This document shows positions 1-24,334 of a stretch of 64,000 nucleotides of DNA, piece by piece. Source of the stretch: an uncultured Acidobacteriota bacterium (GTDB lineage: Bacteria; Actinomycetota; Acidimicrobiia; Spongiisociales; ZC4RG35); the NCBI GenBank assembly GCA_963828465.1, contig CAWHEU010000025.1:32001-96000 (forward strand), given 5' to 3'. Below the pieces are notes generated by a model. It saw nothing but the letters and a program-made list of their open reading frames with translations, was not told the origin of the DNA and searched no databases. The translations under genes and the position numbers were made by a program. How positions within the stretch are numbered: position 1 is the stretch's first letter; the number at the start of each line of letters is the position of its first letter.

Positions 1-392
1 TTCTGCTGGGCCCGGTCGGCGCCCAGTCGGATCGCGGTGGAGTTGCCCTCGTGCCAGTTGACGATGAGAACCCTCACCACGCCGGCATTGGCCAACCCCT
101 CGCAGACCTCCACCAGGAGCGTCGCCAAAGTATCAGGACTTATGCTCAAGGATCCCGGCCAGGGAAGGTGATAGGACGCCACGCCCACCGGGGAGATGGG
201 CACTACCGGAGCCTCGAGTCGCTCACCGACGCGGAGGGCGATGGTGAGGGCGGCAAAGGCATCCGTGCCCAGGGGGAGATGACCCCCGTGCTGCTCGATG
301 CTGCCCGTCACCAGCACGGCCGTCCCCCGACCCAAGGCGTCCTGTGCTTCGGGTTGGGTCATATTGGCGAGAAGCATGTGCTCGCGGCTCAC
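1..392 (-). CDS. Creatininase-family amidohydrolase (runs off left edge; 3' part missing)
   Basis: Not in the ORF track. Manual translation from GTG at 392 gives MSREHMLLANMTQPEAQDALGRGTAVLVTGSIEQHGGHLPLGTDAF...YHLPWPGSLSISP...LIVNWHEGN, with the ExHGxHLPxxTD creatininase motif. GGAG lies upstream. Confidence 0.85.
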   Translation of the reverse strand, partial: MSREHMLLANMTQPEAQDALGRGTAVLVTGSIEQHGGHLPLGTDAFAALTIALRVGERLEAPVVPISPVGVASYHLPWPGSLSISPDTLATLLVEVCEGLANAGVVRVLIVNWHEGNSTAIRLGADRAQQ

Positions 393-425
393 GTTTCCGT
401 CTCCGATCCTGACCGTCAGCGGCGT

Positions 426-443
426 TGCACAAACGGTTGTTCA
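426..443. promoter_or_regulatory. LacI-type operator (site 1)
   Basis: TGCACAAACGGTTGTTCA, a CG-centred imperfect palindrome just upstream of the creatininase gene. The same motif recurs in six other promoter regions. Confidence 0.7.
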
Positions 444-470
444 GAGAGTAGCCCTCAGACGGTTGGGCTG

Positions 471-1520
471 TCAGGTCGGGGCAGGCGCCGTCGAGCCCCG
501 AACCACCAGCTCCGGCGCCGCAAGGTGGGTCTCGGCGGGCCGGCCTGGATCCGCGATTGTCTCCAGCAAGAGATTCGCCGCCATCGAGCCCAGGTTGTTC
601 TGGGAGATGTGGACTGTCGTGAGCGGTGGTGAGAACCGGTCGCCGTACGGCATGTCGTTGAAGCCGACCACCGAGACGTCTTCTGGACACGATCGCCCGA
701 CTTCCCGGATGGCATCGATCGCACCCAACGCGAGCCGGTCGTTGGCGGCGAGCACAGCAGTGGTGTCGGGACGCTCCTCGAGCAGGTCACTCGTCACCCG
801 GTAACCCTCCTCCTCGGTGTGACGGTTGGCAAAGCCGTGACTCCCGCTCAGACCCGCTTCCTGGAGCGTCTCTTCGAACGTCCCGAGCCGATTGACGGTG
901 GACGAGACGTCTTCCGGTCCTCCGACGTGCACGATGTTGCGATGGCCAAGCGAGAACAGGTGCTCCACCGCCAGACGGGTCCCGGTGCGGTCATCGGGGA
1001 GCACGGCGCTGATCTCGCGGCCTTCGGCCCCACGATTGAAGAGCACCACCGGGATTCCTTCGTCGACGAGCCAAGCCAGAACGGCGTCGTCTTCCCTGGC
1101 CACCCCGTACAGAAGGCCATCTGCCTGAACTCCGAGCATGGCAGACACTTGAGACTCGGCGTGCTTCGGGTCGTCGTCGGTGCTGGCGAGTATCAGCGAG
1201 TACCCGTGGGCATAGAGGACGTCGCCGGCACCGCGGGTGATACCCGCCTGATAGAGATTGGCCACGTCGGGAACGACCATCCCGACCACGAGAGTTCGTC
1301 CGGTGCGTAGGGCGCGGGCGATGGTGTTGCGGCGATAACCGAGTTTTCGGGCCACCGCGCGGATTCGCTCGTCGGTGTCCTGGGTGATCCGCCCTGCGGC
1401 GGCCTGGTCGTTGAGGACGCGGGAAACGGTGGACACATGCACGCCGGCCTCGCGGGCGACGTCACGCAACGTCGGCGGCTTGCCCGCTCGCGTCTCGCCA
1501 TTTCCACCAGGAGTACTCAC
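471..1520 (-). CDS. LacI-family transcriptional regulator
   Basis: PTLRDVAREAGVHVSTVSRVLN HTH, YRRNTIARAL hinge, and a periplasmic-binding-like effector domain (VSVVGFND..PPLTTV). Probable start is GTG 1520. Confidence 0.95.
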   Translation of the reverse strand: MSTPGGNGETRAGKPPTLRDVAREAGVHVSTVSRVLNDQAAAGRITQDTDERIRAVARKLGYRRNTIARALRTGRTLVVGMVVPDVANLYQAGITRGAGDVLYAHGYSLILASTDDDPKHAESQVSAMLGVQADGLLYGVAREDDAVLAWLVDEGIPVVLFNRGAEGREISAVLPDDRTGTRLAVEHLFSLGHRNIVHVGGPEDVSSTVNRLGTFEETLQEAGLSGSHGFANRHTEEEGYRVTSDLLEERPDTTAVLAANDRLALGAIDAIREVGRSCPEDVSVVGFNDMPYGDRFSPPLTTVHISQNNLGSMAANLLLETIADPGRPAETHLAAPELVVRGSTAPAPT

Positions 1521-1569
1521 AGGGCGAGGGTACCCAAACCCCTCAGGCCGACTGATGGCACCGCATTTC

Positions 1570-2772
1570 TTACGCCTGAGCGCCACCCGTATCCGGAAGA
1601 AACCTCCAGGAGAACAAGGCCGCAGCTACCAGGACGCCCGCCACGAACAGAAAAGCCACGACTCTGCCGAATCCGGCGAACAGGCCCGTGACTACCAGCG
1701 GTCCGGTGATCAAGCCGAGATCCCCGACGAATCGAAAACGGCCCAAATGCGATCCGACTCGAGCCGGGTCGGTGATATCCCCCAGGATCGTGGCCGCAAC
1801 AGGGACCGCGAAGCTGGCCAGCGACATGACGACGATGGCAGCGATCCAAAGGGCAACAGTGGGCTGAAGCGTGAGAAGCGCGACACCGAAGGCTTGGATG
1901 AACAGACCCGGCACGAGCACGGACTTTCTCGAGAGTCGATCGGACAACCGGCCACCCACGAGCGTCCCCGCGAACCGCGCCAGCCCCCCTACGCCCAGGG
2001 CGAGCCCAATGGCTGCAGTGCCCAGGCCGAGGTCGTCGGCTCCGATGATCGGCACCATCGTCTGAGAGACAGAGCCCAGAGTGAGGAAGACGGCGAAAGA
2101 CACGCTCTGCAGGACCAGGAGCGGCAGGAAGGATCGGCCCCCTGGGTCAGCAAGACCGCGATCGCCCGCCCGGGCGGCCGACGCCGGAGGGGGCCGGTTC
2201 GACCGGGCCGTCAACAAGACGAGAACCACGATCCCGGCGGCTCCGGCGCCTACGAACATCGCAACCCGCCAGCCACCGATGGATGCGATCAAACCGGCCG
2301 TCGCCGGCCCGATGGCCTGCCCGCCCAGCAAGGCAGCCGAGAAGATCGCCATGGACGTGCCTCGATGACTGTCGCCGGACACAGTCGAGAAGAAGGTCAT
2401 CCCCGTGGCGTTGGTAGTGGCCGAGCAGATCCCGAGCAGGAAAGAGGCAACGTAGACCACGAGTGCCACCCAGGAGAGCCCGAGGAGCAGGCTGCCCAGA
2501 GCCACGCCTCCCGCTGACAGTGCCATGAGGTTGATAGCCCTCACCCTGTCAGCGAAATGGCCGCCCGGCAGGTCGGCCACGAGTCTGCCCAAGGCGAACA
2601 CGGTCGTCACGAGCCCCAACTGAAAGGTCGACATCGACAGCTCACGGCCGAACTCGGGCAAAAGGGCGACCCGGAAGAAGGCGACTGCAGTGAGGGTGAG
2701 AACGGCCGCTGAAACGAGGCTCGGCTCCCGCAGCCCGGTCGTGGCGCGCAGACGACGGATGTAATCTCGCAT
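1570..2772 (-). CDS. MFS transporter
   Basis: About 12 hydrophobic segments and motif A-like GHFADRV / GRLSDRLSRK. Start is ATG 2772; the ORF-track N-extension is an antisense shadow of the next gene. Confidence 0.9.
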   Translation of the reverse strand: MRDYIRRLRATTGLREPSLVSAAVLTLTAVAFFRVALLPEFGRELSMSTFQLGLVTTVFALGRLVADLPGGHFADRVRAINLMALSAGGVALGSLLLGLSWVALVVYVASFLLGICSATTNATGMTFFSTVSGDSHRGTSMAIFSAALLGGQAIGPATAGLIASIGGWRVAMFVGAGAAGIVVLVLLTARSNRPPPASAARAGDRGLADPGGRSFLPLLVLQSVSFAVFLTLGSVSQTMVPIIGADDLGLGTAAIGLALGVGGLARFAGTLVGGRLSDRLSRKSVLVPGLFIQAFGVALLTLQPTVALWIAAIVVMSLASFAVPVAATILGDITDPARVGSHLGRFRFVGDLGLITGPLVVTGLFAGFGRVVAFLFVAGVLVAAALFSWRFLPDTGGAQA

Positions 2773-2787
2773 GGATCGAAAGGGCAT

Positions 2788-2805
2788 GCTACAAACGTTT
2801 GTGCA
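2788..2805. promoter_or_regulatory. LacI-type operator (site 2, strongest)
   Basis: GCTACAAACGTTTGTGCA with a perfect 12-bp core ACAAACGTTTGT, between the divergent MFS and LVIVD genes. Confidence 0.8.
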
Positions 2806-2832
2806 GGCCCCAGGTGGGAAGCGCGAGGACCC

Positions 2833-3999
2833 ATGCACCCCGAAGACACGGCTGGATTTCGACTCGTCGGTCAGTCCGATCTGAACGGCTTCGGCGACGG
2901 CATGCAGGTCATGCCTCACGGCGACACCCTCTACGTCGGTCACTTCGGGCCGAGCGGCATGGGCACCTCGATCCTCGACATCTCGGACCGGGCGACGCCC
3001 CTGGTGGTACGGCAGTGGGAGGCACCTGAGGGGTCCCATACCCACAAGGTCCAGGTGGCCGACGGCCTGCTGATGACCAATCACGAGCTGTTTCGTAGTG
3101 AGGGGCCGGCCCCGGTGGGGATGGCCATCTACGACCTCGATGACCCGCACGACCCTCAACGGCTCGGCTTCTTCGACACCGGCGGCCGCGGTGTCCACCG
3201 AATCGTCTACGAAGGCGGCGGCTTTGCCTATGTCTCGGCGACCCCCGACGGTTACACCGGTCGAATCTGGCTGATCGTCGACGTTTCCGATCCGGCCAAC
3301 CCGTCCGAAGTCGGTCGCTGGTGGTGGCCCGGGATGTGGACTTCGGATGGCGAGACCTTGGACACGCCTGAGGGCGAGGATTGGCTCGTCCACCATGCGA
3401 TGGTCCACGAAAACCGTGCCTACCTTGGTTTCTGGGATGGTGGGATGGTGGTGATAGACATCTCCGACCCGTCCAGCCCAACGACGATCTCCCGACTCGG
3501 ATGGGAGGAAGGAGGACACACCCACACCTGCCTCCCGCTTCCCGACCGCGATCTCGTGGTCGTCACCGATGAGGTGTTGACGGAAGGATGCGACGGGGAC
3601 AGACACATGATCAGAGTCGTAGACGTCTCCGATGAGAGGGCCCCCTTCGTGCGTTCGATCTGCCCGGTGCCCGAGGGCGATTTCTGTCAGCGGGGGCTCC
3701 GCTTCGGGTCACACTGCCTCCACGAGAACCGCCCCAACAGCTATCGGAGCCAGGAGCTCGTGTTCGCCACGTACTTCAACGCCGGTCTCAGGGTCTACGA
3801 CCTCGCCGACCCCGACGACCCGGTGGAGATCGCGCACTGGATCCCTGAATGCCCCCCGAACCAGGCTGCGGCCCAGATCAACGATGTTTTCGTATCCGAG
3901 GACCACACCGTCTACGTGACCGACAGAGTCAACGGCGGCGTTTACATCCTCGAGCCAGACATCACCTTGTCCACCCGCATGACGCAAGCGGCGTCGTGA
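2833..3999 (+). CDS. LVIVD-repeat beta-propeller protein, His-rich, putative hydrolase
   Basis: Repeated blades (ILDISDR, IYDLDDP, LIVDVSDP, VIDISDP, VVDVSDE, VYDLADP) and conserved-looking His motifs (HTHKVQ, GVHRI, GGHTHT, FGSH). No signal peptide. Confidence 0.8.
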   Translation: MHPEDTAGFRLVGQSDLNGFGDGMQVMPHGDTLYVGHFGPSGMGTSILDISDRATPLVVRQWEAPEGSHTHKVQVADGLLMTNHELFRSEGPAPVGMAIYDLDDPHDPQRLGFFDTGGRGVHRIVYEGGGFAYVSATPDGYTGRIWLIVDVSDPANPSEVGRWWWPGMWTSDGETLDTPEGEDWLVHHAMVHENRAYLGFWDGGMVVIDISDPSSPTTISRLGWEEGGHTHTCLPLPDRDLVVVTDEVLTEGCDGDRHMIRVVDVSDERAPFVRSICPVPEGDFCQRGLRFGSHCLHENRPNSYRSQELVFATYFNAGLRVYDLADPDDPVEIAHWIPECPPNQAAAQINDVFVSEDHTVYVTDRVNGGVYILEPDITLSTRMTQAAS

Positions 4000-4024
4000 G
4001 CGATCGAGGAGACCCGATTCGACA

Positions 4025-5032
4025 GTGACCACCTACGACATCCACGCGCATTGCATCCCGGCAGCCTTGCTGGACCTCTTGCGCGAGGAGGGCCCCCGCC
4101 TGGGCATCGAGTTGGCAGATGACGGCAAGGGCGAATACGCGGTGATAGCAGGCAGGGTGCGCCTGGCCCCCTTCAACCCGGTGCTGACCGACCTCGATGC
4201 CCGCCTGCGCGCCATGGATGCCACCGGAGTCGACGTCCAGCTCATCTCGGGCTGGATCGACTTGACCGCGTATGCGCTGAGCCCTGCTGTCGCGGGCGAG
4301 TACTCACGCCAGTTCAACGAGATCATCGCCGCGGAGGCGGGCCGACATCCCGATCGCCTACTCCCTCTAGGGACAGTCCCGTTGCAGGACCCGGCTCGAG
4401 CGGCCGAGGAGCTGGCCTTCGCAGTCGGAGACCTGGGCATGGCCGGGGTGCAGATCGCCACGACCGTCGACGGCACCGACCTCGATCAGGCCGGGCTCGA
4501 CCCTTTCTGGGAGGCGGCCGAGGACCTCGGATGCCCCGTGGTATTGCACCCCTGCGACCCGCTCCCCGGAGTGGATCTGTCGCGCAACTTCCTCGACAAC
4601 ATGGTCGGGCGCCCCGCAGAGAGCACAATCGCGGTGGCGCACCTTCTGTTCAGTGGCGCCCTGGAGCGCTTCCCTGGTCTCATCCTCTGCGTGGTGCACG
4701 GCGGCGGCTTCATCCCCTATCAGCTCGGCCGCATGCAACGAGGATTCGATGCCGTGCCCAAACTGACCGCGAACAACATCTCGACGCCGCCATCCGAGCT
4801 GGCACGTCGCCTCTACTACGACACCGTCCTTCACGACCCTGCCCCGCTGGCGTTCCTGGTCGACCACGTCGGTGCCGATCACGTTCTCATGGGGACCGAC
4901 TACCCGTTCCCGATGGGTGACCCCACGCCGGTGGACACGGTCGCTTCGATTCCCGGTCTCACGGACGAGCAGAGAGACCTCATCCTCGGAGGGAACGTCG
5001 CTCGTCTGCTCCAGGCGACCAACCACCAATGA
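4025..5032 (+). CDS. Amidohydrolase_2 family protein (ACMSD/decarboxylase-hydratase-like)
   Basis: DIHAH, VLHP, HGGG and GTDYPF metal-site motifs. Confidence 0.88.
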   Translation: MTTYDIHAHCIPAALLDLLREEGPRLGIELADDGKGEYAVIAGRVRLAPFNPVLTDLDARLRAMDATGVDVQLISGWIDLTAYALSPAVAGEYSRQFNEIIAAEAGRHPDRLLPLGTVPLQDPARAAEELAFAVGDLGMAGVQIATTVDGTDLDQAGLDPFWEAAEDLGCPVVLHPCDPLPGVDLSRNFLDNMVGRPAESTIAVAHLLFSGALERFPGLILCVVHGGGFIPYQLGRMQRGFDAVPKLTANNISTPPSELARRLYYDTVLHDPAPLAFLVDHVGADHVLMGTDYPFPMGDPTPVDTVASIPGLTDEQRDLILGGNVARLLQATNHQ

Positions 5033-6175
5033 CAGCGAGCGGACCCGTGGCGTCCTTCAACCCCGAGTTCGAGTCCCTGACCTGCTTCGACTGCGGTGCC
5101 CATCACGAAATCGGACGACTCCACTCCGTGTGCGAGTCTTGCGGTCTGCCCCTGCAGGTCAACATGAGGTTGAAGCCCGACACCGACCCGGCTTCGGTGA
5201 TCGACCCTTCCATCCACTCCCTTTGGCGCTACTCGGCGGTTCTACCCGTCCTCCCCGAAGCGGCCATCTCGCTCACGGAGGGGTGGACACCACTGGTGAG
5301 GCCGACGCGCGAACCTGGGTGAAGGACGAGGCCCGGAACCCGACCGGGTCCTTCAAGGCGCGCGGCATGTCGATGGGGGTGTCCGCGGCCGTCGCCCTCG
5401 GCGTCCAACGCCTCGTCGCCCCATCGGCAGGGAACGCTGCGGGCGCGCTTCGGCGTATGGGGCCGCAGCCGGCGTGGAAGTGCTGGTGGCGATGCCCGAG
5501 GACACGCCTCGGCAGTTCGTCGAGGAATGCCGGCAGTACGGGGCACAGGTGGAAATGGTCCCCGGCACGATCGCCGACTCGGGCAGATGGTTGGCCGAGC
5601 ACCGATCGCCGCACGACTTCGACCTATCCACCCTCAAGGAGCCATTCCGCGTCGAGGGCAAGAAGACGATGGGGTACGAGCTGTGGGAGCAGTTCGACGG
5701 CGACCTGCCCGACGTGATCGTCTACCCGACCGGAGGTGGGACGGGCCTGGTCGGGATGTGGAAGGCCTTCGACGAGATGGAGGCCATGGGATGGATCGGG
5801 GCGAATCGGCCCCGACTCGTATCGGTGCAATCAGACGGGTGTGCCCCCGTGGTCGAGGGGTTCAGGACGAAAAGCCGTCGCACCGAGCCCTGGCCCGATC
5901 CCCGGACCACGGCCTACGGGCTTCGGGTGCCCAACCCCATCGCAGGGTTCATCTGCCTCCGCGCTCTCCGGGAGACCGGGGGCACGGCGATCGCAGTCCC
6001 GGAATCCGACATCGAGACGGCTTCGGCCGCGATGTCCGCCGCCACGGGTGTCGACGCCTGCCCCGAGGCGGGGGCGGCGTGGGCCGCCTTCGAGACTCTG
6101 CGCGATCGTGGCTGGATCGGGCCCGAGGAGAGGACGCTCGTGTTCAACACCGGGACCGGTCTCAAGTACCGCTGA
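5029..6175 (+). CDS. Threonine synthase-like fold-II PLP enzyme (two frameshifts, near 5310 and 5450)
   Basis: N-terminal Zn ribbon CFDC..CESC, LWRY and SLTEGWTPL in the first frame; KDEARNPTGSFKARG and SAGNA in a second frame; EGKKT, PTGGGTG and FNTGTGLKY in a third. Confidence 0.85.
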
Positions 6176-6181
6176 GGTCCG

Positions 6182-7114
6182 CTAACGGCCCTCGGTCCGC
6201 GGGTCGAGGACGTCTCGCAAGCCGTCACCCACGAGGTTGAACGAGAGCGCCCACAGGAACACCATGAGACCCGGGAACGTCGAGGTCCACCACCGCCCGG
6301 CGATGATGTCGGCCTGGCCCTCACTCACCAGAGTCCCCCACTCCGCCTGCCCGGCCACGGCTAGCCCGATGAAGGCGAGAGTCGCACCCAACAACACGGC
6401 GTGACCCATGTCCAGGGTCCCCTGAACGGCCACTGGCGTGAATGAGTTGGGGAGGATGTCCCTTCGGATGATTCCGAACCGGGAGTCCCCGACGGCCCGC
6501 GCCGCGTCGACATAGTCCTCTTCACGCACCTGGAGTATCTGACTTCGGACGATCCGGGCGTAGCGCGCCCACATGATCACTATCAGCGCGACGACGATGT
6601 TCTCGAACGAAGGCCCGAGAATTGCGGCAATCGCCAGTGGGAACACCAGCGTGGGGATAGCCAGGAAGACGTCCACGACCCGCATCAGGACGGCGTCGAC
6701 CTTGCCCCCAACGATCCCGGCGGTGCAGCCGACGATGAGACCTATGAGCATGGCGCCCGCGACGACGTAGATCGAGAGCTGCAACGAGAGGCGGGCGCCC
6801 CAGACGATTCCGTAGAGGACGTCGCCGCCGAGACGGGTGGTGCCCAGCAGGTGGCCCGGTGAACCCGGCGGCGCGGCGACCGCACTCAGGTCCCGCGGCA
6901 TCTGATAGGCGCCACGCGGGTTCGCGTCGACCAGGAGGGGAGCGAAGATGGCCATGCCCAAAAGGAGCACGATCATGATCGCCCCAAACCTCGTGCTCCC
7001 CTTGCTGAACACCTCTCGCGTGGTCGAGGCCAATCGCCCCACCTTGACTCTGAGCGGCGACTCCCGCACCGGCACCCCTGGTGCTCGCTCGGCGCGGACG
7101 GCTGAGAACCACAT
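6182..7114 (-). CDS. Peptide/nickel ABC transporter permease (DppC/OppC-like)
   Basis: HLLGT..GGDV..GAR.SL and the EAA loop YVDAARAVG. Confidence 0.92.
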   Translation of the reverse strand: MWFSAVRAERAPGVPVRESPLRVKVGRLASTTREVFSKGSTRFGAIMIVLLLGMAIFAPLLVDANPRGAYQMPRDLSAVAAPPGSPGHLLGTTRLGGDVLYGIVWGARLSLQLSIYVVAGAMLIGLIVGCTAGIVGGKVDAVLMRVVDVFLAIPTLVFPLAIAAILGPSFENIVVALIVIMWARYARIVRSQILQVREEDYVDAARAVGDSRFGIIRRDILPNSFTPVAVQGTLDMGHAVLLGATLAFIGLAVAGQAEWGTLVSEGQADIIAGRWWTSTFPGLMVFLWALSFNLVGDGLRDVLDPRTEGR

Positions 7115-7117
7115 GGG

Positions 7118-8128: not shown

Positions 8129-8178
8129 CCTTCAACTCCCAAGAGCGAGTCTACGGCACCTCCAGATCAGTATGGAGG

Positions 8179-8208
8179 GCGCCGGAAGAGCGGGGACTCT
8201 TCCGGCGC
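8179..8208 (-). terminator. Intra-operon stem-loop after the binding-protein gene
   Basis: GCGCCGGAAGAG-cgggga-CTCTTCCGGCGC, a 12-bp perfect stem between the SBP and permease genes. This position is typical of an mRNA-stabilising or partial terminator hairpin. Confidence 0.6.
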
Positions 8209-9967: not shown

Positions 9968-9985
9968 TGCCCAATCGTTTGCAAC
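9968..9985. promoter_or_regulatory. LacI-type operator (site 3)
   Basis: TGCCCAATCGTTTGCAAC between the divergent SBP and M24 genes. Confidence 0.65.
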
Positions 9986-12254: not shown

Positions 12255-12256
12255 GC

Positions 12257-13294: not shown

Positions 13295-13348
13295 CGCACA
13301 AACGTATGCGCTGCTAGCGTCGGGTCATCTGGTGCAATCCATTGCGGA
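13295..13348. promoter_or_regulatory. Tandem LacI-type operators (sites 4a and 4b)
   Basis: CGCACAAACGTATGCGCT (13295-13312) and GGTGCAATCCATTGCGGA (13331-13348) between the two divergent aldolase genes. Confidence 0.65.
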
Positions 13349-16778: not shown

Positions 16779-17833
16779 CGGAGGGCCCCCGCTTGCTCCA
16801 CCATCGGCGCCACCGGCACAGCCTCGCCGTTTCGCTTCGACGACTCGAGAGCGGCATGGACCACGGCGAGGGCTCTGATCGCTTCGAGGGCACCCACCTC
16901 GATCTCCGCCTCCCCTCTGATGGCGAGAGCGAACTCGTCTAACTGCTCCCGGAACATGTCGGTGTGAGGCATGTCGACGGGAGGTCGGGTCGACTCCCGG
17001 TATGCCTGGCTGACGAGAGTGCTCTTCGAGTCCACGAAATGGGACTCATCCCAGTTGTTGAAGTCGAGGTCGTAGAAGAGGTTGGCCTCCGTGCCCTGCA
17101 GGCGCAGCTGATAGACCCCTGGCGAGGCCCAGCCGGTGCCCAGATACCCGAGAGGGCCGGACTCGAACTCCAGAATCGACATGATCGCGTCCGGCACCTC
17201 CGACTTGGTGTACAGCTTGCGCGCATGGCTCGACACTGAAGCGACCGGGCCGAGGAGATACTGGAGATTGTCGGCGTGGTGGACACCGAGCTGGATCATC
17301 GCCCCGCCTGGGCTCTTGTCGGCGTACCAGCGCCAGGTGTCGGTGGTCAGCTCCAGGCCGCGCTCGTTCGAGAAGTTGGCCTCTGCGAGCGACACCTGGC
17401 CGATCTTGCCGGTCTCTATCCACTGCTTCATGGCCCGGTGCCCCCCGAGTCGTCGGGCACTGTGACCGACTGCGAAAGCTTTGCCGGATGCGGCCGCCGC
17501 TCTGGCTATCTCACCGGCGTCCTCCATCGTGTGGGCTATCGGCTTGTCGGTGTAGACGGCCTTGCCCGCATCGAGACTCTCGAGGATGACGCTCTTGTGC
17601 GTGTCATTCGGGGTGGTGACCAGCACTCCCTCGATCTCGGGGTCGGAGAGCAACTCGTCGAGGGAGGATGCCGCCCGGAGAACGCCGAACTCCTCCTGAA
17701 ACGCTGTGCGACTCTCGGGTGAGCGTGAGAAGCAGCTCGCCAGCTCGATCACCGTGCCTCGTTGTGCCCCCCTGGCGAGCACCCTGGCCCAGCGGCCCAG
17801 CCCTATGGAGGCGAGTTTGACCCGCTCACTCAT
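16775..17833 (-). CDS. Gfo/Idh/MocA-family oxidoreductase
   Basis: IGLGRWA, TPNDTH, DKPIA, GGAMIQLGVHHAD. Confidence 0.9.
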   Translation of the reverse strand: MSERVKLASIGLGRWARVLARGAQRGTVIELASCFSRSPESRTAFQEEFGVLRAASSLDELLSDPEIEGVLVTTPNDTHKSVILESLDAGKAVYTDKPIAHTMEDAGEIARAAAASGKAFAVGHSARRLGGHRAMKQWIETGKIGQVSLAEANFSNERGLELTTDTWRWYADKSPGGAMIQLGVHHADNLQYLLGPVASVSSHARKLYTKSEVPDAIMSILEFESGPLGYLGTGWASPGVYQLRLQGTEANLFYDLDFNNWDESHFVDSKSTLVSQAYRESTRPPVDMPHTDMFREQLDEFALAIRGEAEIEVGALEAIRALAVVHAALESSKRNGEAVPVAPMVEQAGALR

Positions 17834-18215
17834 CGGTCCCCTCCTCGTCGGTCTCGAGGAGAAGGTCGAGCTCCTCGATGTTGTTGGCGAAATCGTCGTG
17901 GGGGAAGAAACACACGAGGGACATCCGCTCGTCTGGATCGGCCATGGTTGCGTGCGGCGTCCCTGCGGGAATGCGGTACCAGGTCCCCGGGCCCACGGGG
18001 TGCACCACACCGTCCAGCCAGACCCGGCCGCGACCCGCTACCACGTACACGATCTCCTCGCTCTGCGGGTGGAGATGCGGTGATCTGGTGGGAACGTGCT
18101 CGATGACGACCTGGCGCACGGTCGAAGCACCCTGGCCCGCGGTCTTGAACGGGTCGGCGGTGGACCTACCGGGAAAGTCGCGAAAATCGAGCTGGCCCGG
18201 GCCGACAACGGTCAC
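17826..18215 (-). CDS. Cupin-domain protein
   Basis: PHLHPQSEEIVYVVAGRG and IPAGTPH metal motifs. Confidence 0.88.
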   Translation of the reverse strand: MTVVGPGQLDFRDFPGRSTADPFKTAGQGASTVRQVVIEHVPTRSPHLHPQSEEIVYVVAGRGRVWLDGVVHPVGPGTWYRIPAGTPHATMADPDERMSLVCFFPHDDFANNIEELDLLLETDEEGTDE

Positions 18216-18979
18216 GACCCGCGTCTCCGCAGCTTCAGGATGGACTCCACCGCGGTAGCGATCTCGTCGGCCACGGTGGCGGCGAACTGCCCGGCGCGCT
18301 CTTGGTCCGCCCAGGCCGGGTTCCCATACCAGCCGTCGTCAGCGATCTCGGTCACGTCTGTGATGTAGCCGTATACCTCTCGGGAGCGACGCATTGCGTC
18401 CAATTCATCGGCGCCTTCCGGCCGGGTCGGCTCCGTCACCCGACCCGAATGGAACAGGTCCGGATCGTGGGCAAGCACCGCCAGGGTCTCGATTCCGCCA
18501 CCATGGGTGAGCTCTCCCCCTGCGGGGGCGTAGATGCGCTGCGCCGTGTAACAGGCGTGCGCGGTGACGAACAGGACATCCTCGCGGTCCTGGACGTCGG
18601 TGGCCACGGCATCGAGCGAGGCGATGTTTCCCTCGTGCCAGTTGACGAAGACGAAGGTCCTCGCCCCCATCGCCACCAACTCCTCGCACAGGTTGGCCAG
18701 GTACGCCTCGAAGACATCCCGGCGTATCGAGATCGTGCCGGGATGCCCGGCGTGGATCGGAGTGACGCCGTAGGGGCCGGCGGACACGATGATGCCATCG
18801 AGGCGCTCGGCGAGCTCCTCGGCAACGAGCTCGGCAGCCATGGTGTCGGTGCCACAGGGCAGGTGCGGCCCATGCTGCTCGACACTCCCGAATGGCATCA
18901 CCACCATGCCCTTGCGACCAATCAACTCGGCCACGTCCGGTGAAGCGAGGTCGTTGATCGATCTGCTCGACATGCTCAA
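18212..18979 (-). CDS. Creatininase-family amidohydrolase (second paralog)
   Basis: GSVEQHGPHLPCGTD, NWHEGN, HGGGIET. Confidence 0.9.
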   Translation of the reverse strand: MSMSSRSINDLASPDVAELIGRKGMVVMPFGSVEQHGPHLPCGTDTMAAELVAEELAERLDGIIVSAGPYGVTPIHAGHPGTISIRRDVFEAYLANLCEELVAMGARTFVFVNWHEGNIASLDAVATDVQDREDVLFVTAHACYTAQRIYAPAGGELTHGGGIETLAVLAHDPDLFHSGRVTEPTRPEGADELDAMRRSREVYGYITDVTEIADDGWYGNPAWADQERAGQFAATVADEIATAVESILKLRRRGS

Positions 18980-19968
18980 CCGATCTCCGCTGCTTCCGGA
19001 GTCACCACAGCGTGCAACGGCGGCTCCGAGTCGAGTATCCGGCGGGCTTCCGCCGCAGCCTGGCGTCGGAGAGCGAGCTCGCTCTCCTCGGTGTACCAGG
19101 ACATATGTGGCGTAAGTATCACCCGTTCCGCGACAGGCTCGAAGACGGAAACATCGGGTGGCTCGTGCTCGAATACGTCCAGTGCGGCAAAGCCAGGCCG
19201 GTTGTCTCTGAGCGCCGAGACCAGAGCTCCCGTGTCGATGAGCGATCCACGGGCAGTGTTCACGAGAACCGAGCCCTCCCTCATGGACCGCAGCTCGGCG
19301 GCGCCGAGCAGGTACCCCCGGGCCGGAGGGGGGGAATGAAGTGTGACCACATCGGAGCCGGCGAGCAGTTCGTCCACGCCTGCGAGACGACCCGGGGCAC
19401 CGCCGAGCGCCGTGGTCACGTCTGATGCCTCGACCGCCGGGTCAGAGACGAGGACGGCCTCGAAACCGAGGCCCGCGAGAAGCAGCGCGACCCGTCGCCC
19501 GATTCTTCCGAATCCGATGACACCCGCCGTCAGACTCGACGGAAGGCGGAGCGGCCGCAGATCGGCGACGCCCCAGGACCCCTCCCTCAGCTTCCGGTCG
19601 GCGGTGGTCAGACGGCGAAGCGAGGCTAGAACCAAAGTGGTGGCATGGAGGGCGACGGCGTCCATGCCGTAGTCGGGCACGTTGACCACCCACATCCCCA
19701 ACGACCGTGCCCGGTCGAGGTCGACGCCGTCTACCCCGACCCCGAGACGGACGATGGCCCGGCTTTCCAGCTTCTCGAGGGTCCCGGCATCGAATCGCGG
19801 TGCGGCTCCGGCCAGGATCACATCCGCGCCGGCGGCGACCGCGATGACGTCTTCGGCCGATTGCCCCGGGCCGGAGACCAGCTCGACGTCACCGAGAACT
19901 CCACGTTCGACGTCGAAATCGCCGAACCGCGTTCCGAGAATCGCCACCTTGGGCCGACGTGAATCCAC
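18976..19968 (-). CDS. D-isomer-specific 2-hydroxyacid dehydrogenase family protein
   Basis: GVGVD, GFGRIG, VNTARG, LDVFEHEP, TPH. Probable GTG start at 19968, shortly after a TATACT box. Confidence 0.9.
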   Translation of the reverse strand: MDSRRPKVAILGTRFGDFDVERGVLGDVELVSGPGQSAEDVIAVAAGADVILAGAAPRFDAGTLEKLESRAIVRLGVGVDGVDLDRARSLGMWVVNVPDYGMDAVALHATTLVLASLRRLTTADRKLREGSWGVADLRPLRLPSSLTAGVIGFGRIGRRVALLLAGLGFEAVLVSDPAVEASDVTTALGGAPGRLAGVDELLAGSDVVTLHSPPPARGYLLGAAELRSMREGSVLVNTARGSLIDTGALVSALRDNRPGFAALDVFEHEPPDVSVFEPVAERVILTPHMSWYTEESELALRRQAAAEARRILDSEPPLHAVVTPEAAEIG

Positions 19969-19991
19969 CGGCCGGGGAGTATAGGGTCCGT

Positions 19992-20009
19992 CGCGCAATC
20001 GATTGCCAG
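19992..20009. promoter_or_regulatory. LacI-type operator (site 5)
   Basis: CGCGCAATCGATTGCCAG with a perfect core GCAATCGATTGC, between divergent genes. Confidence 0.75.
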
Positions 20010-20035
20010 CCGTCTTACGGCTATAAAAGGGGGGC

Positions 20036-22309
20036 GTGGACGACATCCCCCATTTCGAGCCGCTCTCTCATCTTCGTCTGGAGGACCATCGGCTGGTCAC
20101 AGGCTCGGGACGCTTTGTCGCCGACCTGGCGCCCCCGGAGACGGTCCATCTCGCCTTCGTTCGCAGCACCGAGGCCCACGCCCGCATCACCGGCATCGAC
20201 ACGCATTCGGTCGATTCCCCCGATGTGGTGGGGATGTTCACCGCAGCCGACCTCGACCTGGCGGACATCCCGGGTGACAGCACGGCCGTCCCTGCGCCCG
20301 ACTTCCCCCGTCCCCACCTCGCGTCGGAGAAGGTGCGATATGTAGGCGAGCCATTGGCGGTGGTCGCTGCCAACACAGCGGCAGCGGCAGCCGACGCCGC
20401 CGACTTGATATGGGTCGACTACGAGATCCTCCCTGCGGTCGTCGATCCCGCGGCGAGCCTCGAGGACGAAATCATTCTGCACGAGGCTGCGGGGACCAAT
20501 GTGGTGAGTCGTTCGGACCTGGCTGCAGGTGAGCCGAAAGAGAGCTACGAGGTGGTAGCCGAGATCGACGTGACCAATCAGCGGCTGGCGCCGAACTCGA
20601 TCGAACCGCTCGTCATCCTCGCTGTGCCCGAAGACGAGGGCCGCCTCACGGTGTACGTGAGCCACCAACGACCACACGGTGTGAAGGCCCGTCTATGCCA
20701 GCTGCTCCCGTATGACCCGGACAAGCTGCGAGTCGTAGTCCCCGACGTCGGCGGAGCCTTCGGGATGAAGGGAATGACCTATCCCGAGCACACGGTGACA
20801 GTGGCTGTGGCCCTCCGGCTCGAGCGGCCTGTCATCTGGGTCGAGCGACGTCGCGAGCATCTGAGCGGCGGAACCCACGGGCGGGGCTCGGTGCACAAGG
20901 TCAGGCTCTCGGGGACATCGGCCGGCCGCGTCCAACGAGCGGAGATCGACGTCCTCGCCGACGTCGGCGCCTACCCACACAACGGGGCCACGATCCCCGT
21001 TTTCTCGCGGTTGGTCGCCTTCGGCCTGTATGACATCGAGAGTGCGGCGCTGACGACCACCTCCGTCGTCACCAATACGGCTCCCACGGGCTCGTATCGC
21101 GGTGCGGGGCGTCCCGAAGCCGCCTATGCCATCGAGAGGGCGATCGATGCCTTCGCCCATGCCGCCGGTCTCGACCCGGTCGAGGTCCGTCTGACCAACT
21201 TCATCCCGTCCGAATCTCTCCCCTACCGCACCGCCACCGGCGCCCTCTATGACTCGGGTGACTATGCGGCGGCGTTGCGCCGTGCTGTCGACCTCGTCGG
21301 GCTCGACGAGCTACGGGAAGAACAGAAGGCGCGCCTGGCAGACGGGCGCGACCCGATCGGCATCGGGTTCGGTGCCTTCGTCGAGCGGGCCGGTGGAGCG
21401 GTCGACGCCGGCGAATACGGACGGGTCGAGGTCGACCAGGACGGAAGGGTCACCGTGCGCACCGGATCGGCTTCCTCCGGTCAGGGCCACGAGACGGCGT
21501 GGGCACAAGTGGCGGCGGCGGCCTTGGGTCTCAACCCGGACGCCGTTACATACATCGCCGGTGACACCGACCAGGTGGCCCGGGGCGCCGGGACCTTCGC
21601 CAGCAGATCGGCTCAGATAGGAGCGGCGGCCATCTGGCGCACGGCTCAGGTTGTGCGACAACGGGCTATCGATCTGACGGCCGAGCTCCTCGAGGCGTCG
21701 CCGGCCGACGTGGTGCTCTCCGATGGCACGTTTTCCATCGCCGGCGTGCCCGGCACCGAGATGGGGTGGGCCGAGGTCGCGGCCGCGGCACATAGCCGCG
21801 GGATCGACCTGAGCGAAGAGGAGTGGTTCGTCCCCGGCGCTCAGACATTCCCGTACGGGGTCCATGTCGCCGTCGTGGAGGTCGCGCTCGAGACCGGCGA
21901 AGTCAGGCTCGATCGCCTCGTCACCGTCGACGACTGCGGAAACGTGCTCAATCCGATGATCGTGGAAGGCCAGCTCCACGGCTCCCTCATTCAGGGGGTC
22001 GGCCAGGCTTTGTACGAAGGGGTCCAGTATTCGGATCAGGGCCAGCTTCTCACCTCGACTCTCATGGACTACGCCTTACCCCGGGCCAGCGACGCGCCCC
22101 CGATCACAGCCGAGCGGTTGGTCCACCCGGCGCCATCGAATCCCCTAGGCGTCAAGGGCACCGGTGAGGCCGGCTGCATCGGGGCACCCCCTGCGATCGT
22201 CAACGCCGTCCTGGACGCTCTCGCTCCGTATGGCGTCACCGATCTTCAGATGCCGCTCCGACCGGCAACGGTGTGGGCCGCCCTCTCGGCATCTACTGTC
22301 CGGCCATAA
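20036..22309 (+). CDS. Xanthine oxidase-family molybdopterin-binding large subunit (not form I CODH)
   Basis: VGGAFGMK, SYRGAGRPE, GQGHET, GTFASRS, VEGQ.HG, KGTGE. Confidence 0.92.
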   Translation: MDDIPHFEPLSHLRLEDHRLVTGSGRFVADLAPPETVHLAFVRSTEAHARITGIDTHSVDSPDVVGMFTAADLDLADIPGDSTAVPAPDFPRPHLASEKVRYVGEPLAVVAANTAAAAADAADLIWVDYEILPAVVDPAASLEDEIILHEAAGTNVVSRSDLAAGEPKESYEVVAEIDVTNQRLAPNSIEPLVILAVPEDEGRLTVYVSHQRPHGVKARLCQLLPYDPDKLRVVVPDVGGAFGMKGMTYPEHTVTVAVALRLERPVIWVERRREHLSGGTHGRGSVHKVRLSGTSAGRVQRAEIDVLADVGAYPHNGATIPVFSRLVAFGLYDIESAALTTTSVVTNTAPTGSYRGAGRPEAAYAIERAIDAFAHAAGLDPVEVRLTNFIPSESLPYRTATGALYDSGDYAAALRRAVDLVGLDELREEQKARLADGRDPIGIGFGAFVERAGGAVDAGEYGRVEVDQDGRVTVRTGSASSGQGHETAWAQVAAAALGLNPDAVTYIAGDTDQVARGAGTFASRSAQIGAAAIWRTAQVVRQRAIDLTAELLEASPADVVLSDGTFSIAGVPGTEMGWAEVAAAAHSRGIDLSEEEWFVPGAQTFPYGVHVAVVEVALETGEVRLDRLVTVDDCGNVLNPMIVEGQLHGSLIQGVGQALYEGVQYSDQGQLLTSTLMDYALPRASDAPPITAERLVHPAPSNPLGVKGTGEAGCIGAPPAIVNAVLDALAPYGVTDLQMPLRPATVWAALSASTVRP

Positions 22310-22319
22310 CGATTGTGCA
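22302..22319. promoter_or_regulatory. LacI-type operator (site 6)
   Basis: GGCCATAACGATTGTGCA overlapping the Mo-subunit stop codon, just upstream of the next gene. Confidence 0.6.
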
Positions 22320-22335
22320 AACCGAAAGGGCGATC

Positions 22336-23248
22336 ATGGGAATCGATCCAGAGCATGTGACCATCGTCGAGGAGGTTCCCGGCTCAGACATTCCGGTCGA
22401 GCTCGAGATATGTCGAGACCTGGGACGGGCTCTACGCCCCGATCGGACTGCGACTCCCACCGGGACCGGGACCCCATCCCCTCGTGCTGCTCGCCTCCGG
22501 CAATGGAGGAGGGGGCATGGCCTGGATCAGGGACGCCGTCGCCAACCGGGGCTACATCATGGACCGATTGCTGGAGCAGGGCTACGCGTGCGCCTGGATC
22601 CGTTATCGCACCGAGGTGGAGCTCGGCTACGAGAACGGTGGACATCTCGTGCGGGACACACGGCAGGGCCGCGACATGTTCAACCGATCCCCCCTCGAGT
22701 ATGAAGACGAGATCGCCATCGTCGAGCAGCTCAAGCAAGACCCGCGCATCGACCCTGACCGCGTTGGGCTCATTGGGATGAGTCACGGTGGGGAGATGGT
22801 CCTCAAGATCGCCTCTGAGTATCAGGGCCTCGCGGCAGCGGTCGCCTCCGAGCCCGCCTCGCATGAGTTCCTCTCCTTGAGCCCGGACAACACTGCCTTT
22901 GTCGACCCGGAGACCGGTCTCCGCAACATCGAGGAGATGCAGATGGTCGAGACCGAGAAGGTGCGATCACGTATCGACATGGCGAAGGCGACGGAGCGGA
23001 TCGCCACGATCGACACACCGATCCTCGTCATGGGCCGGGAAGATGATCACCTCCAGGGGATATTCCGCACCAGCTACGACCTTCTGGCGGAGGCAGGCAA
23101 GCCTGTCGAGTGGGTCAGCTGGGACCACGATCTCCACGGATACGTCTATCCGCAGCGCGGGCCTGACGGCGAATATGAGGTCAATGAGGTCCAGGAGGAA
23201 GCGATCGCCGGTGTCCTCTCCTACCTCGGCCGGCACCTAAAGGGGTAA
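22336..23248 (+). CDS. Alpha/beta hydrolase (S9/dienelactone-hydrolase-like), frameshift near 22405
   Basis: ATG 22336 MGIDPEH...VEL joins RYVETWDGLYAPIGLRLPPGPGPHPLVLL in another frame. Then IDPDRVGLIGMSHGG and HGY. Confidence 0.78.
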
Positions 23249-23257
23249 GAACGCCGG

Positions 23258-24193
23258 TCAGGTCAAACCGTCAGAGACGTCCTTGTTCTCGGGCTCGAGG
23301 GTGACATTGGTGCCTTCGGCCTGTCGGGACAACATGGACGCGAAGTCCTGGCCGCCGAAGCCACGTCCCACTCCATCCATGACGATCTGATGGACCAGGG
23401 CGGCCGTCGGAAGAGGGACATCGAGGAGGCGACCCGCCTCGAGACCGAGCTCGAAGTCCTTGCGAAGCAACTCCCAGGTGAACGTCGGCGTGTAGTCGAG
23501 ATTCACGAAGGCCGGTGTCTTGTAGCGGGTGAAAGTCGACCCCATCACGCTGTCGTTGAGGAAGTCGAGGAAGTCGGCGCGGGAAACGCCTGCCGCCTCG
23601 GCCAGGACAGTGATCTCGGCCATCGACTGCGTCACGACACCAAGCATGAGGTTATGGCAGATCTTGACCAGCCGGGCCTCGTCGCCCTCTCCTACGTATG
23701 TGACCTTTCGCCCGAACAGCTCGAGGTACGGGAGCGCGGTCTCGAACGCCTTCATCGGGCCGGACACCACAGAGGTGAGCCGTCCGGCTTTGACGACTTT
23801 TGGATTGCCAGAAACTGGTGCCGCCAGCACCGCAGTGCCCAGCTCTCCGGCCCGTTCGGTGAGCGTCTCGGAAGTGGGGCCGTCGATCGTGGTCGAATCG
23901 ACGATTATCTGCGGGCGACTGTTCGGCTGTGAGAGAACTCCTTCATCACCGATCGTCACCTCGAGCACATCCTCCGGCCCCGCCACCATCGTGAATACGA
24001 TGTCGCGCTCGGCTAGCTCGGCGGGCGAGTCGACGATCTTTGCCCCCTTGTCGGCCAATGGCTCAGCCTTGGCCCGGGTTCGGTTGTAGACCCACAGGTC
24101 CACGTTGGAGGCGAGAAGCCGTGCGACCAGGGCGGCACCCATCCGACCGGTGCCTATCCAGCCCACCCGGTGCGGATATTTGTCGTCAGCCAT
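23258..24193 (-). CDS. NAD(P)-dependent beta-hydroxyacid dehydrogenase (3-hydroxyisobutyrate DH family)
   Basis: GWIGTGRMG, YNRT, APVSG, VKICHN, KDFELG. Confidence 0.9.
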   Translation of the reverse strand: MADDKYPHRVGWIGTGRMGAALVARLLASNVDLWVYNRTRAKAEPLADKGAKIVDSPAELAERDIVFTMVAGPEDVLEVTIGDEGVLSQPNSRPQIIVDSTTIDGPTSETLTERAGELGTAVLAAPVSGNPKVVKAGRLTSVVSGPMKAFETALPYLELFGRKVTYVGEGDEARLVKICHNLMLGVVTQSMAEITVLAEAAGVSRADFLDFLNDSVMGSTFTRYKTPAFVNLDYTPTFTWELLRKDFELGLEAGRLLDVPLPTAALVHQIVMDGVGRGFGGQDFASMLSRQAEGTNVTLEPENKDVSDGLT

Positions 24194-24250
24194 CGTCGGT
24201 GCACTCCTCTCGCCTCTGCGCGCTGCCAGAACGAAGGTCCGACCTTGCCT

Positions 24251-24268
24251 CACGCAATCGTTTGTATT
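24251..24268. promoter_or_regulatory. LacI-type operator (site 7)
   Basis: CACGCAATCGTTTGTATT upstream of the dehydrogenase at the right edge of the cluster. Confidence 0.65.
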
Positions 24269-24334
24269 ATTGGCACTTTGGGGCTGCCGCGCAAACAAAG
24301 ATGGCCCGGGGTCAGGGTAGAGCTAATATCAGGG

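Follow-up and report, generated by a model that had tools for sequence, protein, structure and literature searches.

The stretch of DNA analysed here, called the window below, comprises 64 kb of contig C25 (C25:32001-96000) in the 3.07-Mb assembly (29 contigs, 64% G+C) of an uncultured soil member of Actinomycetota, and its first 24,300 nucleotides hold 23 genes, called by GC-phase analysis together with Pfam, which form most of a candidate catabolic gene island that appears to be controlled by a LacI-family regulator (Table 1). The whole island has about 28 genes in about 11 transcription units and covers about 29.6-29.7 kb (C25:26.7-56.3 kb), with six genes beyond the left window edge, and on its right flank ArsR, AHSA1 and PadR genes are followed by unrelated housekeeping genes. 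Pfam finds every enzyme family that an earlier sequence-only reading had listed for this region, including two uptake systems (an MFS transporter and a family-5 ABC importer), two creatininase-fold and two M24/Creatinase_N genes, three NAD (nicotinamide adenine dinucleotide) dehydrogenases (GFO_IDH_MocA, 2-Hacid_dh and NAD_binding_2) and two DapA-like proteins, one of them a weak match, and the continuation of the island past the left edge was likewise rightly foreseen. The LVIVD-repeat β-propeller and the DLH/S9-like hydrolase had however been missed, and the pyridoxal phosphate (PLP) lyase of that reading, though a PLP gene is indeed present, proves to be threonine-synthase-like and interrupted by two 1-nt gaps.

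Table 1. Genes and predicted operators of the island, in window coordinates except where contig coordinates (C25) are given.
Feature	Position	Strand	Evidence and remarks
Zn-ADH (zinc-dependent alcohol dehydrogenase), SnoaL-like, TauE-family permease, two ABC ATPases, rest of creatininase A	C25:26,668-32,000		left of window
Creatininase-fold amidohydrolase A	1..392 (Pfam match 3-392)	-	N-terminal 130 aa in window; Pfam Creatininase 121.5 bits
Creatininase A, full gene	C25:31613-32392		Pfam 173.5 bits; motifs EQHGGHLPLGTD + WHEGN
Operator O1 ACAAACGGTTGT (palindrome, predicted)	429..440		upstream of creatininase A; kept in G003, G019, G030, G020
LacI-family regulator	471..1586	-	LacI helix-turn-helix 55.7 bits, Peripla_BP_3 133.5 bits; longest open reading frame, true start uncertain
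MFS transporter	1570..2772	-	MFS_1 152.2 bits
Operator O2 ACAAACGTTTGT, perfect (predicted)	2791..2802		between divergent MFS and LVIVD genes
LVIVD-repeat β-propeller	2833..3999	+	LVIVD 58.9 bits; + frame backed by GC phase
ACMSD-like Amidohydro_2, metal-dependent decarboxylase/hydratase by family	4025..5032	+	196.3 bits, E 7.8e-57, human ACMSD chains
Threonine-synthase-like (ThrC-like) PLP enzyme (PALP)	5029..6175	+	start overlaps stop of ACMSD-like gene (ATGA)
Dpp/Opp-type ABC permease 2	6182..7114	-	BPD_transp_1 105.1 bits
Dpp/Opp-type ABC permease 1	7118..8128	-	BPD_transp_1 134.7 bits
Family-5 solute-binding protein (SBP)	8222..9919	-	SBP_bac_5 218.2 bits; best PDB match 5u4o, 123.7 bits, without ligand information
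Operator O3 CCAATCGTTTGC (predicted)	9971..9982		between SBP and M24_1 genes
M24_1, creatinase/DoeA-like pita-bread protein	10086..11258	+	Peptidase_M24 96.0 bits, Creatinase_N 37.4 bits
Ornithine cyclodeaminase/mu-crystallin family (OCD_Mu_crystall)	11268..12260	-	in 4/8 related loci
Divergent DHDPS-like protein	12257..13279	-	DHDPS 26.4 bits (cut-off 22.1); AVKYE lysine; in 4/8 related loci
Operators O4 ACAAACGTATGC and O5 GCAATCCATTGC (predicted)	13298..13345 (starts 13298, 13334)		between two DHDPS-family genes
DHDPS/NanA-family class I aldolase-like	13392..14375	+	DHDPS 126.8 bits; GIKN lysine; best PDB match 79.2 bits
M24_2, creatinase/DoeA-like pita-bread protein	14388..15662	+	Peptidase_M24 + Creatinase_N, 77.1 bits
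DHPONH-like alpha/beta C-C hydrolase	15678..16778	-	161.1 bits to PDB 2jbw
GFO/IDH/MocA dehydrogenase	16775..17833	-	IolG model 110.7 bits vs cut-off 355
Cupin (Cupin_2), 129 aa	17826..18215	-	56.6 bits
Creatininase-fold amidohydrolase B	18212..18979	-	Pfam 174.7 bits; motifs EQHGPHLPCGTD + WHEGN
D-2-hydroxyacid dehydrogenase family (2-Hacid_dh)	18976..19968	-	Pfam
Operator O6 GCAATCGATTGC, perfect (predicted)	19995..20006		between 2-Hacid_dh and Mo-hydroxylase genes
Mo-hydroxylase large subunit (CoxL/glyceraldehyde-dehydrogenase-like)	20036..22309	+	Pfam, NCBIfam
DLH/S9-like alpha/beta hydrolase	22484..23248	+	Pfam
HIBADH/tartronate-semialdehyde-reductase-family dehydrogenase (NAD_binding_2)	23258..24193	-	Pfam, NCBIfam
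Operator O7 GCAATCGTTTGT, perfect (predicted)	24254..24265		about 60 nt upstream of HIBADH-like gene; right island border

The notion that these genes form a regulon, also put forward by the sequence-only reading, gains support from a 12-bp LacI-type palindrome with a central CG, RCAAWCGWTTGY, which was first spotted by reading the promoter gaps and which, with at most one mismatch allowed, has seven matches in the window (429, 2791, 9971, 13298, 13334, 19995 and 24254), whereas shuffled windows contain 0.85 on average and 3 at most, none of 100 shuffles reaching seven. All seven lie in non-coding gaps before transcription units of the island and none in the remaining 24.3-64 kb, every divergent promoter gap of the island holds such a palindrome, and an eighth island site (C25:26566) precedes the ATPase genes. 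The regulator itself joins a LacI helix-turn-helix domain to a periplasmic-binding-protein-like effector domain. A weaker operator-like sequence with two mismatches, ATAACGATTGTG, is moreover seen at 22305-22320 between the Mo-hydroxylase and DLH-like genes. Throughout the 3.07 Mb of the genome the pattern has 43 matches, eight of them within the island, and the eight perfect copies are divided between the island (four), the contig end C20:1-10 kb (two) and a paralogous locus at C2:127,000-139,200 (two, at 127002 and 139119). The C20 contig end (1-9,966) repeats the left half of the island, that is the ACMSD-like, LVIVD, MFS, LacI, creatininase A, Zn-ADH, SnoaL, TauE and ATPase genes, at 90-97% amino-acid identity, and is therefore probably the copy of a co-binned second strain and not a true duplication. 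The C2 locus carries, as judged by homology, a CocE/NonD-type hydrolase, a CrtI-like flavin adenine dinucleotide (FAD) oxidoreductase, a second DHPONH-like hydrolase, a third M24 protein and a paralogous Dpp-type ABC importer.

The arrangement is furthermore conserved. In each of the eight related genomes fetched, one of which (G018) has its locus flagged as unpublished, the set recurs with amino-acid identities of 55-100% and its modules reshuffled as blocks (ATPases / TauE-SnoaL-Zn-ADH-creatininase A-LacI; MFS / LVIVD-ACMSD-ThrC; permeases-SBP / M24_1; DHDPS-M24_2; DHPONH-like hydrolase-GFO-cupin-creatininase B-2-Hacid_dh / Mo large subunit-DLH / HIBADH), and in G015, G019 and G007 a block of CocE/NonD-type, CrtI-like and second DHPONH-like genes stands inside the main island. 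Operators are kept at orthologous places in G003, G012, G015, G019, G030, G007 and G020. This synteny in eight of eight related genomes and the enrichment of the operator motif together show that the grouping of the genes is more than chance. M24_2 has orthologues (83% identity or more) in 15 of 24 genomes of the same genus and in 1 of the 16 genomes compared from the rest of the order. Of 300 further genomes sampled from the phylum, 3 contain M24_2 relatives at 49-59% identity and 13 contain relatives of the LVIVD protein (E <= 1e-30).

Outside the immediate relatives the same families come together again in other orders. LVIVD orthologues in other families of the phylum (49-65% identity) adjoin at least two other island families in five of the six neighbourhoods fetched, and perfect operator copies are found in the promoter gaps of the distant loci (five in G302, four in G107a, six in G047, four in G132, two in G035 and one in G149). 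The G302 locus unites a Mo large subunit, there with a [2Fe-2S] gene, with HIBADH, ACMSD-like, LVIVD, LacI and five ABC genes as well as M24_2, DLH, DHPONH-like, CrtI-like, TauE and another M24 gene; G047 and G132 have LVIVD-ACMSD and 2-Hacid_dh-creatininase B-cupin-GFO units along with M24, TauE, HIBADH and LacI genes; and G035 and G149 have ABC, LVIVD, second DHPONH-like, CrtI-like and DLH genes and a creatininase B-cupin-GFO unit. The complete genome G107 divides the set between two loci 1.5 Mb apart, each with a LacI gene of its own, the first with M24_2, two HIBADH genes, a DHPONH-like hydrolase, a Mo large subunit, M24, TauE, ACMSD-like, cupin and ThrC-like genes, and the second with SnoaL, a thiamine pyrophosphate enzyme, creatininase A, Zn-ADH, two pairs of M24 and alpha/beta hydrolase genes, 2-Hacid_dh and creatininase B; cultured strains of the G107 kind have LacI proteins 58% and 42% identical to that of the island. 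The archaeon Haloarcula ordinaria (strain ZS-22-S1) has a plasmid, the sole match in a plasmid search with creatininase A, that bears two island-like loci, both without a LacI gene, one with an ABC system and CrtI-like (44% identity), LVIVD (34%), M24_2 (51%) and creatininase (42%) genes, the other with an ABC system and M24_1 (34%), ACMSD-like (33%), Zn-ADH (41%) and DHPONH-like (33%) genes. The co-occurrence of homologues that the sequence-only reading implied is thus seen both in other Actinomycetota families and on a haloarchaeal plasmid. In addition, plasmid p4 of Rhizobium bangladeshense (L079, 45.3-70.4 kb) encodes a LacI protein 39% identical and a DHPONH-like protein 36% identical to those of the island, among genes for an MFS transporter, an intradiol dioxygenase, an FAD monooxygenase, an SDR, an aldehyde dehydrogenase, an amidohydrolase, a beta-keto-acid cleavage enzyme, a Zn-ADH, a cupin and phosphoenolpyruvate (PEP) carboxykinase; with seven operator matches against 1.05 expected, six of them perfect, it looks like an uncharacterised aromatic-compound regulon. 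Taken together we consider it fairly probable, at about 0.6, that the region makes up most of a single LacI-repressed catabolic regulon, uncharacterised and conserved, built from known superfamilies. Two modules that other genomes keep separate are fused in the island, which therefore probably serves two related branches and not one linear route.

Among 21 island proteins and 11 others compared with NCBIfam, the ThrC-like protein is the only one to reach an equivalog cut-off, and the creatininase, DoeA/EutD, EutC, IolG/M/N, XdhA and CoxL models all score below theirs. The two M24 proteins are, as judged from their alignments, not canonical metallopeptidases, since most of the prolidase metal-ligand positions are substituted. 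Relative to the Pyrococcus furiosus prolidase (1pv9), whose five dinuclear-metal ligands we take to be D209, D220, H284, E313 and E327 (positions counted on the alignment), M24_2 has E, Q and F in place of the first three and G in place of the last, keeps E313, and has lost three of the five ligands; in M24_1 (alignment A1) four of the ligand columns defined on M24_2 are occupied by E, Q, I and Q, the fifth, at a GE pair, being ambiguous, and neither protein is thus expected to form the canonical dinuclear metal site. Their two-domain architecture matches DoeA structures over the full length (residues 37-423), the best PDB matches of M24_2 are prolidases (best score 52.7 bits), no creatinase chain is among its PDB matches at E <= 1e-5, and the ESM Atlas gives generic 'M24 family' clusters only, mostly of Pseudomonadota. 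Both creatininase-fold proteins belong to PF02633 and carry EQHGxHLPxGTD and WHEGN, whose E-x-H...D and H-E motifs presumably supply the metal-site ligands of the fold, and they score 88.9 (A) and 81.0 bits (B) with the creatininase equivalog TIGR04448, below its cut-off of 235; the best NCBIfam model of creatininase B is MftE (99.4 bits). PDB sequence searches reach 53.3 bits for creatininase B and 33.2 for the LVIVD protein, distant matches that give no ligand clue.

Two enzymes are more closely related to proteins of known function, as the sequence-only reading had proposed for both. The DHPONH-like hydrolase aligns with 2jbw over residues 19-358 (E 3.9e-46), including the catalytic triad (the GxSxG serine in GASLGG, the aspartate of HGMLD and the histidine of DATHG); it is about 33% identical to nicotine-plasmid genes and has no nicotine-pathway neighbours, and its PDB matches also include AntI and Ayg1, which we take to be C-C hydrolases. 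The Peptidase_S9 and S15 models also pick up the alpha/beta hydrolases. The ACMSD-like protein, on the assumption that the Zn ligands of human ACMSD are H6, H8, H174 and D291, its catalytic residue H224 and its substrate-binding residues R47 and R235, aligns H, H, H and D at the Zn-ligand positions and keeps H224 and R235, but R47 falls on an alanine, with an arginine two residues earlier, and W191 on an asparagine. Both DHDPS-family proteins carry a lysine of Schiff-base type, its position judged by eye. The FAD enzyme of the regulon is CrtI-like; it was also considered as a nicotine-type amine oxidase, which we reject because its only PDB match is phytoene desaturase. Finally, the ThrC-like protein scores 314.6 bits with NF006050 (PRK08197-type, cut-off 303) for its C-terminal fragment and 444.5 bits for its intact G019 orthologue, and 60.2 bits with the thrC model TIGR00260, short of the cut-off of 167.1.

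The island accordingly shares single families with several known pathways and fails the defining tests of each. The pyridine pathway of nicotine degradation in Paenarthrobacter nicotinovorans (pAO1) employs the Mo-hydroxylases NDH and KDH, 6-hydroxynicotine oxidases and 2,6-dihydroxypseudooxynicotine (DHPON) hydrolase, and the island resembles it in having a full-length DHPON hydrolase homologue with the Ser-Asp-His triad, a Mo-hydroxylase large subunit and, in the regulon, an FAD oxidoreductase of the amine-oxidase superfamily. It lacks however a three-subunit Mo enzyme, its FAD enzyme is CrtI-like, and it adds M24, creatininase-fold, ACMSD-like, LVIVD and DHDPS-family genes and a Dpp-type importer; the two clusters are not orthologous. 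Creatinine is degraded by creatininase, creatinase (an M24 protein without metal) and sarcosine oxidation, and the island likewise pairs a creatininase-fold enzyme with creatinase-type M24 proteins without the peptidase metal site, creatininase and M24 genes being adjacent on the Haloarcula plasmid, but the creatininase equivalog scores lie below the cut-off and no sarcosine oxidase was seen in the island. In ectoine and hydroxyectoine catabolism the M24 hydrolase DoeA/EutD acts together with DoeB, the PLP dehydratase EutB and the OCD-like EutC; the full-length alignment of the island M24 proteins to DoeA, the OCD-family gene and the PLP fold-type II enzyme recall this route, but the M24 proteins score 42.8 and 50.1 bits with the EutD model TIGR02993 (cut-off 613), the EutC model gives 117 against 472 bits, no DoeB-type deacetylase is found in the island and the PLP enzyme is ThrC-like and not EutB-like. 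The ACMSD-like protein, which finds its counterparts in the kynurenine and 2-nitrobenzoate pathways (cf. LigW, IDCase and gamma-resorcylate decarboxylase), matches ACMSD over its full length with the Zn ligands and Arg235, but lacks an aligned Arg47 and Trp191, and neither a 3-hydroxyanthranilate dioxygenase nor an aminomuconate semialdehyde dehydrogenase gene adjoins it. The inositol route of Thermotoga maritima, lastly, consists of IolG (a GFO protein), IolM (a Zn-ADH) and IolN (a creatininase-fold C-C hydrolase), and the same three families occur in adjacent pairs in the island, Zn-ADH with creatininase A and GFO with creatininase B; with the models NF041097, NF041098 and TIGR04380 (cut-offs 355 for IolG, 450 for IolM and 245 for IolN) the island proteins however score 110.7 (IolG), 212.3 (IolM) and 43.2-56.9 bits (IolN), all below half the cut-offs, and the creatininase-fold proteins are closer to creatininase and MftE than to IolN. 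The combination, built from known superfamilies, matches no described pathway, and the absence of a gene-for-gene counterpart agrees with the sequence-only reading. A full-text literature search, with subscription-only literature lying outside it, returned no paper on this gene combination, and passages of a review on guanidine (PMC12623156) had no bearing on the cluster.

As for the function of the regulon, the LacI protein may repress the roughly 11 units until an effector appears. The substrate would be a nitrogen compound, anionic and resembling an amino acid, or a small set of related compounds, entering through the family-5 ABC importer and the MFS carrier. The metal-free M24 proteins and the two creatininase-fold metallo-amidohydrolases would cut C-N bonds (amide, amidine or lactam), and since the divergent or adjacent neighbour of the SBP gene is a metal-free M24 protein in every lineage, a C-N hydrolysis of the creatinase or ectoine-hydrolase type is tentatively placed first. 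The Zn-ADH, GFO, 2-hydroxyacid, HIBADH-like and CrtI-like enzymes, together with the Mo-hydroxylase where it is present, could then create (hydroxy)aryl-ketone or beta-dicarbonyl groups, and the DHPONH-like hydrolases might cleave the resulting C-C bonds; the many dehydrogenases and DHPONH-like hydrolases suggest repeated steps in which the substrate is oxidised and then cut beside the carbonyl, a pattern fitted by an FAH-family protein in Haloarcula and by the beta-keto-acid cleavage enzyme in Rhizobium. The ACMSD-like enzyme would decarboxylate, the cupin and the DLH-like hydrolase would process a ring-cleavage product, and the DHDPS-family enzymes and dehydrogenases would yield pyruvate or 2-oxoacids, an end role that 2-oxoacid dehydrogenase components and PEP carboxykinase may take in relatives. 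The substrate most likely belongs to the aromatic or N-heteroaromatic carboxylates with an amide- or amidine-linked side chain, because the strongest similarities are to ACMSD and the nicotine-pathway DHPONH and because ACMSD-like, cupin, DLH-like, SnoaL-like and Mo-hydroxylase genes are present and aromatic-ring genes stand under the Rhizobium orthologue of the regulator. A sugar-like or cyclitol substrate is the main alternative.

A number of observations weigh against the view of a single LacI regulon for such a compound. The genome is metagenome-assembled, 92% complete with 4.8% contamination, and one contig end is duplicated. The link between the LacI protein and the palindrome is a prediction from sequence, and the loose pattern is not specific to the island regulator, since one-mismatch matches also adjoin other LacI genes of the genome (C27:28268, C25:12122 and C28:42192); the motif is a generic half-site pattern of the LacI family and may be open to cross-talk or read by several regulators. 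Neither the OCD gene nor the weak DHDPS-like gene was found in four of the eight related loci, and no DHDPS-family homologue was found in the distant loci. Each step of the route is proposed from superfamily membership, several dehydrogenases score best with inositol-pathway models and the regulator belongs to a sugar-binding family, so that a cyclitol or sugar-like substrate would seem to fit the dehydrogenase scores and the regulator family equally well. The Mo-hydroxylase of the island is moreover a lone large subunit for which no [2Fe-2S] or FAD partner was found there. The genome has six such large subunits (contigs C1, C18, C20, C22, C25 and C26) and five Fer2_2 matches in four genes, all on other contigs and beside four of the five other large subunits, which leaves the island copy and the one at C26:51.8 kb as the two without an adjacent [2Fe-2S] gene; a partner may be encoded in trans. 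The ThrC-like gene, finally, is out of frame, with 1-nt gaps after 5300 and 5449 in comparison with four of four relatives (G020, G012, G003 and G007, 384-394 aa), the frame being open in G019 as well. Decay to a pseudogene throughout the lineage is rejected on account of these open frames, and since a nearby aldehyde dehydrogenase gene (C25:20,807-22,352) is also split, assembly error is as likely as decay; that the DHDPS gene of G012 is split too suggests that the split genes reflect indel errors in the assemblies.

Among the alternatives, a single linear N-heteroaromatic pathway, as advocated by the sequence-only reading, would run from ring hydroxylation by the Mo-hydroxylase through hydrolytic opening and deamination to aldol cleavage. 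The Mo large subunit stands under an operator here and in G302, G132 and G107a, the best matches to characterised enzymes are DHPONH and ACMSD, the DLH-like, cupin and SnoaL-like proteins suit aromatic-ring chemistry, and the genes under the Rhizobium LacI orthologue include those for an intradiol dioxygenase and an FAD monooxygenase. However, the Mo subunit of the island stands alone and, not being found in the two Haloarcula loci or in the stretches of G035, G149 and G047 examined, lies outside the common core, the only PF01593 relative in the regulon is CrtI-like and not a nicotine-type amine oxidase, and the genes are split in G107. Ring hydroxylation as a general entry step is therefore not supported, nor is the idea of one complete pathway, in view of the two LacI loci of G107 and of the part of the regulon at C2:127-139 kb; the N-heterocyclic nature of the substrate is plausible from the ACMSD, DHPONH and Mo-hydroxylase similarities and stays conjectural. 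The linear pathway as a whole appears rather unlikely.

Less likely still is a carbocyclic polyol or an amino- or amino-acid-substituted cyclitol (inositol-like, aminocyclitol or mycosporine-like) as substrate, which dehydrogenases would turn into a cyclic di-ketone, the IolN-like creatininase-fold and DHPONH-like enzymes opening the ring and the M24 proteins removing N-linked groups. That the Zn-ADH, next to creatininase A, scores best with IolM and the GFO protein, in an operon with the cupin and creatininase B, with IolG, that the 2-Hacid_dh-creatininase B-cupin-GFO unit recurs in G047, G132 and G035, and that the regulator is of the LacI family all speak for it, but the scores are far under the cut-offs, the Zn-ADH fits threonine dehydrogenase nearly as well (209.5 bits), IolN is a poorer match for both creatininase-fold proteins than creatininase and MftE are, and the ACMSD-like, Mo-hydroxylase and DLH-like genes are left without a role. 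Related to this is the speculative and distinctly improbable proposal that the regulon serves to break down, by a route not described so far, a widespread natural product of the amino-acid-conjugated cyclic enaminone or beta-dicarbonyl kind, for instance mycosporine-like amino acids or a related N-substituted cyclitol or heterocycle. In this route, at the same low odds taken jointly, the metal-free M24 proteins would hydrolyse vinylogous amidine C-N bonds, a retro-Claisen cleavage by the creatininase-fold and DHPONH-like enzymes would open the ring, and the LVIVD propeller would have a catalytic role. Mycosporine-like and related compounds occur in soils and hypersaline mats.

It is very doubtful that the region consists of several unrelated catabolic operons that lie side by side by descent, with a generic LacI operator read by different regulators. 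The one-mismatch matches beside other LacI genes, the shuffling of modules among relatives and the split set of G107 would be explained in this way, but all eight perfect matches of the genome belong to this gene set, the island has a single LacI gene, and descent alone does not account for the recurrence of these gene families, variously ordered, in five or more other families of the phylum and on a plasmid of an archaeon. Scavenging of peptides by a Dpp-type importer, Xaa-Pro M24, S9/S15-type serine and MftE-like peptidases, with the OCD and DHDPS proteins handling (hydroxy)proline, is very unlikely, for despite the Dpp/Opp-type transporter, the prolidase matches of M24_2, the S9 and S15 matches of the alpha/beta hydrolases and the MftE score of creatininase B, M24_2 lacks three of five prolidase metal ligands and M24_1 is similar at four columns, the alpha/beta hydrolase is far nearer DHPONH than any peptidase, the OCD and one DHDPS-like gene are dispensable in four of eight relatives, and a LacI regulator, a Mo-hydroxylase and an ACMSD-like enzyme would not be expected.

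Some further observations concern the surroundings of the island. Upstream of the window, at C25:18,118-22,352 (L003:2118-6349), genes for an alanine racemase, a DUF993 protein (580.7 bits) and an aldehyde dehydrogenase stand in a row, preceded by a luciferase-like monooxygenase gene. Two open reading frames in the window, 25865-27223 (452 aa) and 46838-48319 (494 aa), have good coding GC phase and no Pfam match at E <= 1e-5. The 41 related records bear titles of metagenome-assembled genomes, with Acidimicrobiia or Acidimicrobiaceae in 27 of them, Acidobacteriota in 8, Actinomycetes or Actinomycetota in 5 and 'uncultured bacterium' in 1, and the Acidobacteriota title looks wrong for the lineage.

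Soil Acidimicrobiia are abundant but uncultured, and little is known of what they use as sources of carbon and nitrogen. Here some 30-37 genes, about 1% of a 3-Mb genome, are tied by prediction to one regulator and one 12-bp operator, and the way in which their families come together again in five or more other families of actinobacteria and on the plasmid of a haloarchaeon suggests a common environmental substrate. The regulon furthermore gathers members of large superfamilies with unassigned activities, namely metal-free M24 proteins, creatininase-fold proteins, DHPONH-like hydrolases, ACMSD-like decarboxylases and LVIVD propellers, and if the enaminone proposal were true it would mean new reaction types for at least four enzyme families. 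Direct experiments on this system are within reach through the operator, the SBP, the effector domain of LacI and Haloarcula ordinaria as a cultured carrier.

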